NCBI GenBank assembly: GCA_002309295.1
Contig: DBXF01000013.1
Location: forward strand, 11,143-75,142
Length of the DNA: 64,000 bases
Direction: 5' to 3'
DNA from: Bacteroidales bacterium UBA1219
GTDB lineage: Bacteria; Bacteroidota; Bacteroidia; Bacteroidales; P3
A program made the position numbers and the translations under genes. The notes under the pieces are model-generated. The model ran no database searches. It had not been told where the DNA came from and worked only from the letters and a program-made list of their open reading frames with translations. Shown piece by piece: positions 26,892 through 42,045 of this stretch. Positions within the stretch are counted from its first letter, which is position 1. Each line of letters starts with the position of its first letter.

Positions 26892-26976
26892 GCCCCTTAG
26901 GGGCGTAATGGTTGGGGGGGGGATTTACTAACCGGAGGTTATCACCTCCGGCTGTATTATTGCGCCCTTACAGGGC
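26892..26976. other. Three consecutive GC-rich hairpins with a G9 homopolymer between the first two
   Basis: GCCCCttaGGGGC (26892-26904), G9 (26914-26922), CCGGAGGTtatcACCTCCGG (26932-26951), GCCCTtacAGGGC (26964-26976). Confidence 0.8.
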
Positions 26977-27004
26977 TATAACGAAAAAATTATAAGTCAG
27001 CTAA

Positions 27005-36704: not shown

Positions 36705-37742
36705 ATGATACTAAATGCGCTAAAAAACCAAAACAAGAGTATAAATCCGACGATACGGGGATGTTATACCTTATTATTCATTCTTACTTTTTTCTCTTTT
36801 TATTGTCACGGTCAGAATGAAGACATTACATTAAAATTCAAAATTAAAAAGAAAGATGTTGGAAAAATCGAATTTCGTGCACCTGAAGTGAAAGATCGAG
36901 CGAAGAAAGATATGACGAGTGTTGTGGATAGTATGTGGTATGTTGGCGACACGTTATATGTCATATATTTGCAAAAAGCACTTGTTGAAGAAGTTTATGA
37001 ACATCATGATGGAGATTTAAATTATTTTGGCTTAGGGTCAGTACTATTTGTACCACAGGAAAAACAACATATTCAACATCTGTCAGTCCCAAAAAGGCCG
37101 GAACACATCTGTTTGTACAACGGCAACCATATTTTTAATTTTAAAAGAACTTCTTCTCAAGAATATCAATTAACTGAATATCATCAGATTCAAAGGAAAT
37201 CGGGGAGACCTAAAAAGCATTTGCAATTGTTAAGCACACATGGCAATTCTTTTGTAAAATATCATTTTTATGGCGATAGCACTTTTACACTAGAGTGGGG
37301 AAAAGAAAATGTAAACAATACTTCCAAAGAAAAGTTTGAAATATTAGGAAGCGGTGTACCGCCTTTGGTTGACTATGATGAAAAGACAATTATTTTAGGA
37401 CAAAGTTGCGGAACTTCCTGTAAATATTATGTTATCTTGCCATTAGTGCCAAATAGCGTGGAAAAGATCTACATGTTTGCCGAAGCATTTAATTTAGAAA
37501 AAAAGATGGTTGCTTATATACCTGAAGAAGAAGACCTTTTTATTAGAGTAGAAAATTATGTCACAGGTCAATATTTGGATATTAAAGAGGAAAATATATG
37601 TCCAGCAGCTTTTAAAGGCGAATGCATTGATAGCGTTTATTTTTCTGATGATACTATTGTGATAAAGTGGCAGGGAACAGAGTGGATGAATGACAGGCCT
37701 GACCCTAAAGAGAAAAAAATTAAAATACAGTTGGATAATTAG
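36705..37742 (+). CDS. Hypothetical secreted/membrane-anchored protein (345 aa), AT-rich orphan
   Basis: Has an N-terminal hydrophobic segment (CYTLLFILTFFSFYCHGQ) and no recognisable domain. Strongly AT-rich codon usage compared with cstA and leuS. Confidence 0.6.
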   Translation: MILNALKNQNKSINPTIRGCYTLLFILTFFSFYCHGQNEDITLKFKIKKKDVGKIEFRAPEVKDRAKKDMTSVVDSMWYVGDTLYVIYLQKALVEEVYEHHDGDLNYFGLGSVLFVPQEKQHIQHLSVPKRPEHICLYNGNHIFNFKRTSSQEYQLTEYHQIQRKSGRPKKHLQLLSTHGNSFVKYHFYGDSTFTLEWGKENVNNTSKEKFEILGSGVPPLVDYDEKTIILGQSCGTSCKYYVILPLVPNSVEKIYMFAEAFNLEKKMVAYIPEEEDLFIRVENYVTGQYLDIKEENICPAAFKGECIDSVYFSDDTIVIKWQGTEWMNDRPDPKEKKIKIQLDN

Positions 37743-37939: not shown

Positions 37940-38809
37940 ATGAAAAAAGCATTTCTCACAACGATACTGCTGTCCACCCTGCTGACAGCCACCGCTTTCG
38001 CCGGATGGCGTGGCGGCACCATGTGCGAGATAATTGGCGTGGGCAACGTAGAATTTGGCAAACAGTTCCGCAACTCGCTCACACGCATGAACTTGCACGG
38101 CGACATCGTTTACATAATGGAACGCACCTACTATATGGAAGGCGATGCCAAAAAACTCTACAGCACCGACTCCATCAATTTCGACCGCCGAGGCAACCTC
38201 GACGACCGCGTGTATATCCGCAACAACGTATATACTTGGTATTCATATTATTTCGACGGCAACAGCTACGCCCTCGGCTGGAACGAATACGACCGCGCCG
38301 ACAAACTGCAGGCTCGTACCGCCTACCTCAACGACCGCAAAGGCAACCGCACCGAACGCACCATTTTCTTTGCCGGAAAGATGAGCAAACGCGAGACCTA
38401 CAAATACGAAGGCACCAACCTCGTGGAAGAACTGCATTACAGCGAAAACGGCAGCGTGTCCGAAAAACGACTCTACAAATACGACGGCAGCGGCAACTGC
38501 TCGCAAATTGAATTCTACGACGCCGCAGGCGACCTCAAACAGACTTACTACTACAAATACGACGGCAACGGCAACCGCATCGAATGGCGTTTCTACGACG
38601 ACGACGAAAACCTTATAAAACTCACCACCTACTACTACGACGAACACAACAATGTAACCGAAATCCACTCGTTCAACTACGACGAGCATGTGAACTGGAA
38701 ACACACCTACGTCTACGAATACGACGAGGACGGCAACTGGCTGCGCCAAACTATTTTCCGCAATGGCGAGAAATACCAGATCATCGAACGCGAAATAGCT
38801 TTCAGATAA
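37940..38809 (+). CDS. Secreted protein built of YD-repeat-like units
   Basis: Signal peptide plus repeated Y.YD..GN...(E/W) units (YKYDGSGNCSQIEF, YKYDGNGNRIEW, YEYDEDGNWLRQ). Confidence 0.6.
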   Translation: MKKAFLTTILLSTLLTATAFAGWRGGTMCEIIGVGNVEFGKQFRNSLTRMNLHGDIVYIMERTYYMEGDAKKLYSTDSINFDRRGNLDDRVYIRNNVYTWYSYYFDGNSYALGWNEYDRADKLQARTAYLNDRKGNRTERTIFFAGKMSKRETYKYEGTNLVEELHYSENGSVSEKRLYKYDGSGNCSQIEFYDAAGDLKQTYYYKYDGNGNRIEWRFYDDDENLIKLTTYYYDEHNNVTEIHSFNYDEHVNWKHTYVYEYDEDGNWLRQTIFRNGEKYQIIEREIAFR

Positions 38810-38886: not shown

Positions 38887-41800
38887 ATGGATTACAATTT
38901 CAAAGAGATCGAACGCAAATGGCAGAGCTACTGGAGAGAAAATAACACCTACCGCTGCGAAAACTCCTCCGACAAACCCAAATACTACGTCCTCGACATG
39001 TTCCCCTACCCTTCGGGAGCCGGGCTGCATGTGGGACACCCGCTGGGATACATAGCCAGCGACATCTTTGCCCGCTACAAACGTCTGAAAGGGTTCAACG
39101 TGCTGCACCCCATGGGCTACGACGCCTACGGCCTTCCCGCCGAGCAGTACGCCATCCAGACCGGCCAGCACCCTGCCATCACCACCGAACAGAACATAGC
39201 ACGCTACCGCGAACAGCTCGACAAAATAGGCTTCTCCTTCGACTGGAGCCGCGAGGTGCGCACCTGCGACCCCGATTACTACAAATGGACTCAGTGGACT
39301 TTCATCCAGCTGTTCAACCATTATTATTGCAACAAAGCCAACAAAGCCCTGCCTATCAGCGAATTGGAGAAACACCTGTCGCAACACGGCACCCAGGGCC
39401 TCGACGCCGCCTGCAGCGAACCCCTCGACATCACTGCCGAGCAGTGGAACGCTTTCACTGAAAAGGAGCGTCAGCAGACTTTGATGAACTACCGTCTTGC
39501 CTATCTGGCCGACATTCCCGTTAACTGGTGTCCGAAACTCGGCACCGTGCTGGCCAACGACGAGGTGGTGGGCGGACTCTCCGTCCGCGGCGGCTATCCC
39601 GTGGAACGCAAACTGATGCGCCAGTGGTCGTTGCGTATCACCGCCTACTCGCAGCGTCTGCTCGACGGCCTCGAGCTCGTCGACTGGACCGACAGCCTCA
39701 AGGAAATACAACGCAACTGGATAGGCCGCAGCGAAGGCGCTTCGGTGTTTTTCAACGTAGAAAACAGCAACAAAAGCTTCGAGATTTTCACCACCCGTCC
39801 CGACACCATTTTCGGCGTAACGTTTATGGTTTTATGTCCTGAACACGAGATGATTATGGACATCACCACCAACGAGCAGCGCAAAGAGGTGGAGGAATAC
39901 CTCAACTGGGCCAAGAACCGCAGCGAACGCGAACGGCAGGCTGAGGTGAAGAAAGTGTCGGGCGTGTTCACCGGCGCCTACGCCGTCAACCCGCTCACCA
40001 ACGAACATATCCCCATCTGGGTGTCCGACTATGTGCTGGCAGGCTACGGCACGGGAGCCATCATGGCAGTGCCCGCCCACGACAGCCGCGACTTCGCCTT
40101 CGCGCGTCATTTCAACCTGCCCATCCGTCAGGTGGTGAGCCTCGAAAAGGACGTTACCAGCGACCCCGCCACATGGACGGAGAGCATGGACGCCAAGACA
40201 GGCTATTCGGTGAACAGCGGTTTCGTTACCGGAATGAAAGTGAAGGACGCCATGAAAGCCGTCATCGACTGGCTCGACGAAAAAGGCATAGGCACACGCA
40301 CGGTGAACTACCGCTTGCGCGACGCCATCTTCAGCCGCCAGCGTTACTGGGGCGAGCCCTTCCCCGTTTATTACAAAGACGGCATGCCCTACCCCCTGCC
40401 CACCGACAAACTGCCGTTGCAGCTGCCGAAAATCGACAAATTCCTGCCCACCGAAACCGGCGAACCGCCCCTCGGACACGCCACCACATGGGCTTGGGAC
40501 ACCGACAAACAGCAGGTGGTGGACAACACCCTTATCGACAACAAGACCGTTTTCCCGCTCGAACTCAGCACCATGCCCGGTTTTGCAGGCTCCAGCGGAT
40601 ACTACCTCCGCTATATGGACCCGCGCAACAACAACGAATATTTCAGCCAACAAGCCGTTAACTACTGGCAGAATGTGGACCTCTACGTGGGCGGAGCCGA
40701 ACACGCCAGCGGACACCTCATCTACAGCCGTTTCTGGAACAAATTCCTGTTCGACATGGGCATGAGCGTAAAGGAAGAGCCTTTCCAAAAACTCATCAAC
40801 CAAGGAATGATACAGGGACGCTCCAACTTTGTGTACCGCGCCAATTTCGAGAAAATGGCCGAGTATTATATTTGGCAACTGATAAAAGACGGTCGTCTGG
40901 GTGCCGATTTCAAACGCGACTACAAGGACGGCAAACGTCGTTTCGACTTCTACAGCGACCACAAGAAAATCATCATCGAGATAAAACGCAAAGAGTCGCT
41001 CGAAAAACTGGCCGAAGTGTATCAGGAATACGCCCTCGTACAAGGATTCAAGATACTGCTCATCTCCGTAAGCGACGTGATGAACGGCACCGACAACATC
41101 GAAAAACGTATCAAAGCCTGCATCGACGGCGAATTCACACCCGCACTGGAGCAGGAGGAAGACACTTTCGTCTCCTACCCCCTCTTCATCTCGAAAAACA
41201 TCCCCGGACGTGAGGAGTTTACGATGCCTATCCACGTGGATATCAACATAGTAAACAACGACATACTCGACATAGAGAAGTTCAGGGCCTGGCGTCCCGA
41301 ATTTGCCGACGCCCAGTTCCAGCTCGAGGACGGCAAGTACGTGTGCGGTTGGGAGATAGAAAAGATGTCGAAATCGATGTTCAACGTGCAGAACCCCGAC
41401 GACCTTGTGGAACGCTACGGCGCCGACACCCTGCGTCTGTACGAGATGTTCCTCGGCCCCATAGAGCAGGCCAAACCGTGGGACACCAACGGCATTGAAG
41501 GCGTGTTCCGCTTTATGCGCAAGCTGTGGAAACTGTTCCACACCGAGAAAAACGACTTCTGCGTAAGCGACGAAGCCCCCACCAAAGAGGAGCTGAAAGT
41601 GCTGCACCAGACCATCAAGAAAGTTACCGACGACATCGAGCGTTTTTCGTTCAACACCTCGGTAAGCACCTTTATGATTTGCGCCAACGAACTCTCCACC
41701 CTCAAATGCAACAAACGTCAGATTCTGGAGCCGCTCACCGTGCTGATAGCCCCCTTCGCTCCGCACATCGCCGAAGAGCTGTGGCACCTGCTGGGCAACA

Positions 41801-42045
41801 CCACCAGCGTAACCACCGCCGCTTTCCCGCTCTGCGACGAGAGCTATCTGGTGGAGGACACCTGCAAATACCCTGTGTCGTTCAACGGCAAGATGCGTTT
41901 CACCCTCGACCTGCCGCTTACCACCACGGCCGCCGATGTGGAGAAAATCATAGCCGAGAACGCCGACGTGCAGAAATGGCTCGCCGGAAAAGCCCCCAAG
42001 AAAATCATCTTCGTGCCGAAGAAAATCATCAACGTGGTATTCTAA
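38887..42045 (+). CDS. leuS: Leucine--tRNA ligase with an extra ~107-aa insert before KMSKS
   Basis: HIGH-type motif ([10 protein letters not shown]), CP1 editing region, KMSKS and a conserved C-terminus. It is 1052 aa, against roughly 920-950 aa that I recall for Bacteroidota LeuRS. Confidence 0.95.

Follow-up and report, generated by a model that had tools for sequence, protein, structure and literature searches.

The window analyzed here is a 64,000-nucleotide stretch of contig DBXF01000013.1 from Bacteroidales bacterium UBA1219 (assembly GCA_002309295.1). It contains leuS, the gene for leucine--tRNA ligase (LeuRS), whose reading frame harbors an in-frame insert that resembles a DUF559-type nuclease domain. 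The leuS product is a member of the bacterial LeuRS family. It scores 947 bits against TIGR00396 (leuS_bact; cut-off, 548), Pfam detects tRNA-synt_1, the PF13603 CP1 editing domain (221 bits), and an anticodon-binding domain, and LeuRS chains in the PDB match it with a best E value of 1e-192. A preliminary description of this DNA had set the 1052 residues encoded here against a length of about 920 to 950 in Bacteroidota LeuRS, and had placed the surplus in one contiguous block before the KMSKS loop. Both points hold. Insert-less relatives measure 937 to 976 residues, and an alignment of the window LeuRS with 13 relatives (14 LeuRS in all), from which we took the insert boundaries, assigns the surplus to a single contiguous block.

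At the insert site, LeuRS without the insert have six residues, “SK(T/K/S/E)(D/N)N”, and the net gain is therefore 108 residues (1052 versus 944). Downstream, the insert is bordered by LFISKNI...PIHVDINIV...KMSKS. The block had been proposed to span 40840-41160; its start stands, while its end lies about 7 codons further on (Table 1). Thermus thermophilus LeuRS (1h3n) covers residues 1-648 and 814-1051 of the window protein: the alignment stops at query residue 648 (T. thermophilus 583) and resumes at 814 (T. thermophilus 626), leaving 649-813 unmatched upstream of KMSKS. The insert thus lies within the region of the leucine-specific domain (LSD), and its surroundings occupy the position by which this domain is defined, that of a catalytic-domain insertion immediately upstream of KMSKS (PMC3643597). 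A search of 40700-41320 for direct or inverted DNA repeats flanking the insert returned only chance-sized matches.

Table 1. Features of leuS and of its in-frame insert, in window coordinates.
Feature	Coordinates	Strand	Basis or remarks
leuS, leucine--tRNA ligase, 1052 aa with insert	38887..42045	+	Open reading frame, TIGR00396, Pfam, PDB matches, synteny
HVGH motif, aa 48-51	39028-39039	+	Translation
Upstream anchor, 15 aa; insert begins directly after it	40795..40839	+	(Nearly) invariant in 14 aligned LeuRS
In-frame insert A652-P765, 114 aa, in place of 6 aa	40840..41181	+	LeuRS alignment
Predicted DUF559/Vsr-like PD-(D/E)xK folded core, aa 654-746	40846..41124	+	PF04480 match (aa 657-744), AlphaFold2, Foldseek, viral-library matches
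Glu659, helix 1; equivalent of Vsr Glu25	40861..40863	+	Invariant in 40 inserts; Glu in 144/155 DUF559 domains
Asp687 of “FDF”, beta-2 (strand 684-690); equivalent of metal-binding Vsr Asp51	40945..40947	+	Invariant; Asp in 153/155 DUF559 domains; aligns to VDF of 3hrl
Glu698-Ile-Lys700, beta-3 (strand 695-700)	40978..40986	+	Glu and Lys invariant in 40 inserts
Ser704, at the DUF559 His position (Vsr His69, general base)	40996..40998	+	Mostly Ser in inserts; His in 89/155 DUF559 domains
Acidic C-terminal linker, aa 747-765, 19 aa, leading back into the LSD	41125..41181	+	AlphaFold2 models; no predicted secondary structure
KMSKS catalytic loop, aa 826-830, 60 aa past the insert end	41362..41376	+	Translation, 1h3n alignment

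We find that the insert is homologous to DUF559, as the preliminary description had proposed in suggesting a DUF559/Vsr-type fold. The Pfam family PF04480 (DUF559; gathering cut-off, 20.6 bits) matches the isolated insert at 27.2 bits (E = 3.7e-6) and the whole protein at 22.8 bits. It is also matched singly by all 12 divergent insert representatives (E ≤ 0.01; best, 6.4e-8), which are 43-59% identical to the window insert, except for one close relative at 82%. A profile built from the inserts recovers, by sequence, the solved DUF559 protein NGO0050 of Neisseria gonorrhoeae (PDB 3hrl) with E values of 1.5e-4 to 3.7e-4. Among 1.84 billion representative proteins, the profile returns 313 matches at E ≤ 1e-3. 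These are mostly free-standing canonical DUF559 proteins of 100-200 residues, and those inspected score 110-284 Pfam bits. In a viral library the insert matches Vsr, DUF559, and homing-endonuclease proteins, and half of the insert representatives also match the DpnII-MboI restriction-enzyme family. PADLOC and NCBIfam gave no match for the insert, and its PHROG matches were all insignificant. A word-indexed search for homologues of the insert alone found none, the index being insensitive to so short a query; relatives were recovered with the full-length protein, in the GTDB scan, and with the exhaustive profile search.

Structure prediction points to the same fold. Modeled alone with AlphaFold2 (AF2), the insert has a mean pLDDT of 80.4 and a pTM of 0.72, with a topology of helix, three strands, helix, strand, and two helices, that is, a restriction-endonuclease-like core (helices 654-669, 702-718, 728-732, and 736-746; strands 676-681, 684-690, 695-700, and 722-727). 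In the model of full-length LeuRS (pTM 0.51), the insert is the most confident part (pLDDT 86-91) and shows the same elements. The first-ranked Foldseek match in the PDB is 3hrl, at a target-normalized TM-score of 0.79 and a root-mean-square deviation of 2.2 Å over 92 columns, and the model reproduces the alpha-beta-beta-beta-alpha-beta core of that solved DUF559 member. The Vsr-like homing endonuclease I-Bth0305I (3r3p) comes next, ranks 4-7 are mitoribosomal proteins of Toxoplasma gondii, which we take to be of the RAP-domain class, and Escherichia coli Vsr follows further down. In the models the insert joins LeuRS tightly at its N terminus and returns at its C terminus through an acidic linker of about 20 residues. 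The linker has a net charge of -6 in the window (median, -4 across carriers) and the highest dN of the insert, and its last residues fall below a pLDDT of 50 in the insert-only model. The fold assignment is supported by sequence and structure evidence that are independent of each other, and together they show the insert to be a predicted autonomous nuclease-fold domain that is translated as part of LeuRS.

The putative active site of this domain departs from that of DUF559. In Vsr and I-Bth0305I, the active-site residues are Glu25, Asp51, His64, His69, and Asp97 (Vsr numbering), with His69 as the general base of Vsr, and DUF559-like enzymes have a conserved acidic residue where Vsr has Phe62 (PMC3239194). 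We compared the residue states of 40 distinct inserts with those of 3hrl and of 155 DUF559 domains. The DUF559 trio of helix-1 Glu, beta-2 Asp, and beta-3 Glu is present as Glu659, Asp687, and Glu698, the last position being Glu in 152 of the 155 DUF559 domains. The residues that follow differ. At the position of Lys700, 142 of the 155 domains have Asp and only 2 have Lys or Arg, one of these being itself a fragment of a LeuRS insert on a 900-nucleotide contig (P0122). The next position is Arg or Lys in inserts and Gly in 118 DUF559 domains, while Tyr712, invariant in inserts, corresponds to Arg in 98. The DUF559 hallmark E-x-D-G-x-x-H (“EADGGQH” in 3hrl) is thus replaced by E-I-K-R-K-E-S, and the catalytic motif of the Vsr type is missing.

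By sequence and topology, the insert does have the classical PD-(D/E)xK arrangement of a beta-2 Asp and a beta-3 ExK. This is the core that had been proposed earlier on the strength of the FDF Asp together with Glu and Lys of IEIK. Its residues proved invariant in 40 of 40 inserts, but it is not the motif of DUF559 itself: because the Vsr-type His is lost, the D...ExK set represents a remodeled site. Across the inserts, 20 of 113 columns are invariant, and both the “G-x-R-x-FDF” hairpin and the K-R-x-x-S motif are fixed in all carriers. The comparison shows a putative active site that was remodeled before the carriers radiated, while Glu on helix 1, Asp on beta-2, and Glu on beta-3 were kept.

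A scan of GTDB, with one genome per species, detected the insert at 44 loci, always at the same leuS site and in reading frames that contain KMSKS. All 44 are from metagenome-assembled genomes of rumen, cecum, or colon, labeled Bacteroidales, Bacteroidia, Bacteroidota, Bacteroidaceae, Lentimicrobiaceae, or Candidatus Limimorpha. Where the gene is complete, the carrier reading frames encode 1035-1053 residues; 4 of the 44 loci are cut by a contig end. In a profile search that included distant carriers, the 120 best metagenome clusters were carriers without exception (1035-1050 residues), which indicates that gut metagenomes commonly contain carriers. The site is empty in 95 of 162 near-full-length LeuRS, holds the full insert in 47, and in 20 holds a remnant of 24-25 residues, “VN(D/N)FEKMAEYHDIS.YD...NNLF”, that keeps the start of helix 1. 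Ordinary relatives thus lack the insert, which is not a generic LSD of the lineage, although it is typical of a sizeable clade of uncultured Bacteroidales. In practice, it is a diagnostic signature of this rumen and gut clade.

The insert has evolved together with its host gene. Identities of insert and host LeuRS are strongly correlated (Pearson r = 0.92; 1081 carrier pairs), with inserts 43-60% identical between groups and host LeuRS identity falling to 68% across carriers. In four carrier groups, the median dS of the insert core and of the rest of leuS is 0.49 and 0.48, 0.78 and 0.52, 1.24 and 1.13, and 1.9 and 1.4. The corresponding dN/dS values are 0.11 and 0.12, 0.03 and 0.03, 0.04 and 0.04, and 0.06 and 0.07. 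The insert is therefore under purifying selection as strong as that on the rest of this essential enzyme. GC content at third codon positions (GC3) ranges from 0.23 to 0.69 in inserts and follows that of the host genes (0.33-0.77). With dS equal, divergence congruent with that of the host gene, and GC3 ameliorated, there is no sign of recent horizontal spread, and on these grounds, together with dN/dS, we rejected a recent mobile insertion. Neither a discordant distribution nor an insert younger than its host, the marks of an active homing endonuclease, was observed. These results agree with the preliminary description in its view that the insert is old and domesticated. Its further remark that the composition resembles the rest of leuS needs qualification: GC3 does track the host, but in the window the insert has a GC content of 0.49 versus 0.56 in the rest of leuS and a GC3 of 0.66 versus 0.77, within the lowest 5% of windows. 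This low GC and GC3 is partly due to a composition rich in Lys, Ile, and Glu.

We also find that the insert has been lost. Bootstrapped neighbor-joining trees of LeuRS, from which insert and mosaic patches were excluded, are unrooted and have no outgroup. All insert-less LeuRS except the sequences P0004 and P0005 form one clan (100/100 bootstraps), so that a single event on one branch, either gain or loss, suffices. The remnant clade of 20 sequences is sister to carrier group C (98/100), which identifies the remnant as a secondary internal deletion. P0004 and P0005 are nested within group A, the window’s own group (100/100), and over most of its length P0005 matches group A carriers at 97-100% identity. 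In a patch at residues 646-798, however, both match the insert-less clan at 87-97% identity and group A at 47-67%. The leuS gene of P0005 (locus L045; 944 residues, 6 of them at the site), the nearest relative that shares the window’s gene neighborhood, is flanked by genes orthologous to those of the window, at 94% and 72% identity. The mosaic patch and the shared neighbors indicate that in this lineage a foreign segment without the insert took its place through homologous recombination, and the shared neighborhood also implies that the carrier leuS of the window is the ordinary housekeeping copy. In both the remnant clade and the P0004/P0005 lineage the insert was lost without loss of leuS, which shows it to be dispensable.

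A second, smaller mosaic patch in the L045 leuS corresponds to window positions 40117-40237 (residues ~406-465). Its nucleotide identity to the window is 57-70%, versus ~88% elsewhere, and its protein is nearer to the remnant and insert-less clades than to group A. Nucleotide comparison of the two genes confirms this patch and displays mainly a gap at the insert site. In these lineages, leuS is recombinationally mosaic.

DUF559 domains also occur in frame inside unrelated proteins. Six such cases, all outside the window and recovered with the insert profile (P0137, P0261, P0198, P0204, P0222, and P0239; 111-138 Pfam bits), are found in UvrC, the catalytic domain of a class-I GluRS, an EPSP synthase-NUDIX fusion, a PriA-like helicase, a DNA methyltransferase, and HsdR. 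These domains are canonical, with D-G-x-x-H intact. In UvrC, EPSP synthase, the methyltransferase, and HsdR, they are bracketed by near-identical peptide repeats rich in Pro, Gly, and Glu (e.g., VPLLTPPPKGEENSPSLREGVRERD and VPLLTPPLKGEENSPSLREGVRGRD), while the flanks in GluRS are only loosely similar. The examples include a complete chromosome (Methylococcus sp. Mc7) and, for UvrC, three Ignavibacteria sequences, and thus finished or independent assemblies. A different arrangement is seen in P0121 (377 residues), the best profile match outside LeuRS (E = 1e-20), which has three tandem DUF559 domains, the first two without D-G-x-x-H. The six in-frame cases look like a mobile in-frame DUF559 cassette. 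The presence of canonical domains in frame in several proteins suggests that such landing is apparently ongoing, and the insert in LeuRS has the look of one such landing that is by now old, fixed, and remodeled.

With moderate confidence, we favor the explanation that a captured DUF559 domain, inherited vertically, now serves on the LSD as an accessory domain for tRNA-Leu, with a part in nucleic-acid binding or positioning. Under this scheme, an ancient in-frame capture would have placed the gene of a DUF559 (Vsr-like, PD-(D/E)xK-fold) endonuclease in a surface loop of the LSD, and the insert would have been passed on vertically from then on within a clade of uncultured gut and rumen Bacteroidales. 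The module would extend the LSD for the binding or positioning of tRNA-Leu and would be beneficial without being essential; a role as a DNA endonuclease appears unlikely. Modular, variable in length, and not strictly required, the LSD is an insertion that holds the KMSKS loop in position, makes contact with tRNA-Leu, and distinguishes tRNA-Leu isoacceptors by the loop size of the variable arm and by nucleotide 20 (PMC3643597). In FASTKD4, a Vsr-like cavity binds RNA without cleavage (PMC11879112). Since the LSD both positions KMSKS and contacts the tRNA, and since Vsr-like folds have been reused as RNA binders, the module is most likely an accessory binder. Several points weigh against this explanation. 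The contact between module and tRNA is one that we infer, and the insert core, with a median net charge of +2, is no more than mildly basic. The invariant E...D...ExK set is not obviously needed for pure binding, so that catalysis may persist. Two independent losses mean that any benefit is modest or dependent on context. Finally, because the tree is unrooted, what appears as a single gain could be a gain followed by one loss in the insert-less clan.

It is possible, though we think it unlikely, that the insert is still an active PD-(D/E)xK nuclease, either moonlighting on DNA, tRNA, or another RNA while tethered to LeuRS or acting as a non-splicing, in-frame homing element against insert-less leuS. 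The invariance of Glu659, Asp687, and Glu698-x-Lys700 in inserts that have otherwise diverged widely speaks for activity, as does the nature of the Asp-to-Lys change, which builds a classical D...ExK rather than signaling decay and is fixed. So do the DpnII-MboI matches and the true homing endonucleases among the fold relatives (I-Bth0305I and the viral matches). Two invariant LeuRS motifs flank the insertion, a setting typical of homing targets, mosaic recombination does occur around the site, and other genes contain canonical DUF559 cassettes in frame. Against activity, the general-base His of the Vsr/DUF559 mechanism is gone along with its neighboring Asp, and no separate DNA-binding domain like the NUMOD/helix-turn-helix (HTH) region of I-Bth0305I is present. 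The insert has co-diverged with its host gene, at equal dS and with ameliorated GC3, and the sole documented recombination removed the insert rather than spreading it. An unspecific nuclease on an abundant housekeeping enzyme would, moreover, be hazardous. That LeuRS houses a catalytically live D...ExK nuclease, as a new class of non-splicing, in-frame homing endonuclease tolerated by the host or as a device coupling tRNA-Leu charging to cleavage of tRNA, foreign DNA, RNA, or the like, seems to us doubtful. Were it true, the in-frame DUF559 domains of UvrC, GluRS, AroA, and the methyltransferase would point to a general mobility of “in-frame nuclease cassettes”. A frozen accident is improbable as well: here the insert would be a mobile DUF559 that landed in a permissive LSD loop as a functionless passenger, kept because imprecise deletion would kill an essential gene and constrained only to fold without getting in the way. 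Its appeal lies in the LSD, of all parts of LeuRS the most variable in length and the most dispensable (PMC3643597), in the two lineages that lost the module with leuS normal, in the in-frame landing of canonical cassettes in many unrelated genes, and in the so far putative function of the module. It fits poorly with a core dN/dS of 0.03-0.11 in four groups, as low as in the rest of LeuRS, where a need for mere folding should relax constraint more. Nor does it account well for the fixation of K-R-x-x-S and “G-x-R-x-FDF” or for the retention of the module over the whole divergence of the host enzyme.

Two further readings can be set aside. Interrupting an essential gene in frame and at a conserved site, the block recalls an intein or another spliced element absent from mature LeuRS, a reading to which we give practically no credence. 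The insert has no Hint or intein Pfam match, and the junctions, R|A(V/L)... and ...YP|L(F), have no Cys, Ser, or Thr after the insert and no His-Asn before its end. The nuclease fold takes up about 93 of its 114 residues, too many for a splicing domain to fit in as well. Junction residues, size, and the lack of a Hint match thus rule this reading out. The other, for which the preliminary description had allowed, is that the block is simply the lineage-typical Bacteroidales LSD with a chance resemblance to DUF559. Every LeuRS of the carrier clade does have the insert. However, 95 of the 162 related LeuRS have 6 residues at the site and yet keep the rest of the LSD region, and the DUF559 homology is significant by independent sequence and structure evidence. 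The empty sites and the homology rule out this second reading, which was very improbable from our standpoint.

Other features of the window were surveyed as well. Just upstream of leuS, a 289-residue protein (37940-38809, +) contains “Y.Y.YD..GN” repeats; its counterpart at the same position in L045, at 94% identity, has no family among its precomputed Pfam matches. Between 36705 and 37800 (open reading frame 36705..37742), GC content drops to 0.31-0.37, versus 0.55-0.62 in leuS 1 kb downstream, which marks either a foreign segment or a strong gene-specific codon bias. A 651-residue antisense reading frame (39832-41787, -), wholly inside leuS, was taken as an artefact of high GC3 and not as a gene. 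The only Rfam match in the window is RF01687 (Acido-Lenti-1 small RNA) at 26932-26977 (+), with 42.3 bits against a gathering score of 37. No tRNA genes were found in the 64 kb, and the Rfam and tRNA scans gave nothing that bears on leuS.

To our knowledge, no restriction-endonuclease-fold module nested in a bacterial LeuRS has been described. Our survey of literature on DUF559, on Vsr-like insertions, and on homing or in-frame insertions in synthetases likewise found no description of a nuclease-fold domain nested in a synthetase. The preliminary description had stated that no such module was known; this stands for the literature searched, but not for sequence data, in which the GluRS P0261 with its nested canonical DUF559 shows that LeuRS is not the only synthetase with such a domain. 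Accessory domains of synthetases are a classic route to new functions, and the nested nuclease-fold case appears to be new. Full, scarred, and cleanly replaced alleles in close genomes also offer a natural experiment on the part that an LSD add-on plays in tRNA-Leu recognition. More broadly, the locus may exemplify how a selfish nuclease gene can be domesticated as a protein domain without a splicing vehicle.

The closest known counterparts of the insert are the DUF559 proteins, represented by NGO0050 (3hrl). They share its fold, its length, and the order of its elements: A-E in helix 1, L-G, a hairpin reading G-x-x-x-x-D-F, Glu on beta-3, and a strand reading G-(F/Y)-x-(I/V)-L. They differ in that canonical DUF559 stands alone, whereas the insert is nested in LeuRS. 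The insert also has K-R-x-x-S for D-G-x-x-H, Tyr for the conserved Arg, and R-R-F for the hydrophobic Y-I-V strand, and it scores about 27 bits on PF04480, where canonical members reach 110-140 bits. Vsr and the EDxHD homing endonucleases, such as I-Bth0305I (3r3p), have the core and the equivalents of Glu25 and Asp51 in common with the insert. Relatives of I-Bth0305I are mobile and reside in conserved genes, within introns, inteins, or fractured genes (PMC3239194). In contrast, the insert has neither the His base nor the zinc site, the NUMOD/HTH region, or an intron or intein vehicle, and it is inherited vertically. Inteins, too, are in-frame inserts derived from selfish elements, found at conserved sites of essential genes and sporadically lost. 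Lacking a splicing domain and suitable junction residues, however, the LeuRS insert stays in the protein.

The RAP domain and FASTKD4 provide a parallel for a Vsr-like fold embedded in a larger protein that handles RNA. Proteins of the RAP class are confined to eukaryotes and their organelles and have no detectable sequence relation to the insert, and the putative catalytic site of FASTKD4 is dispensable when mutated, whereas the E/D/ExK set of the insert is invariant. Among class-I synthetases, an IleRS with a GNAT domain (NCBIfam NF040702) likewise carries a domain from an unrelated enzyme superfamily. Judged by the family name alone, that domain is an additional one, while the domain of LeuRS is nested in a catalytic-domain insertion. 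The LSD itself varies among bacteria in the same region as the insert, being absent in M. mobile and B. subtilis and large and gene-splitting in A. aeolicus. Large differences in length are known to be tolerated there, and the region takes part in binding and discriminating tRNA-Leu (PMC3643597). These known variants are idiosyncratic, beta-rich elaborations, none of which has been reported as a recognizable domain of a nuclease superfamily. Set beside these systems, the insert is best described as a divergent subfamily that derives from DUF559 and is restricted to LeuRS, and we regard both this subfamily and the domain architecture as new.

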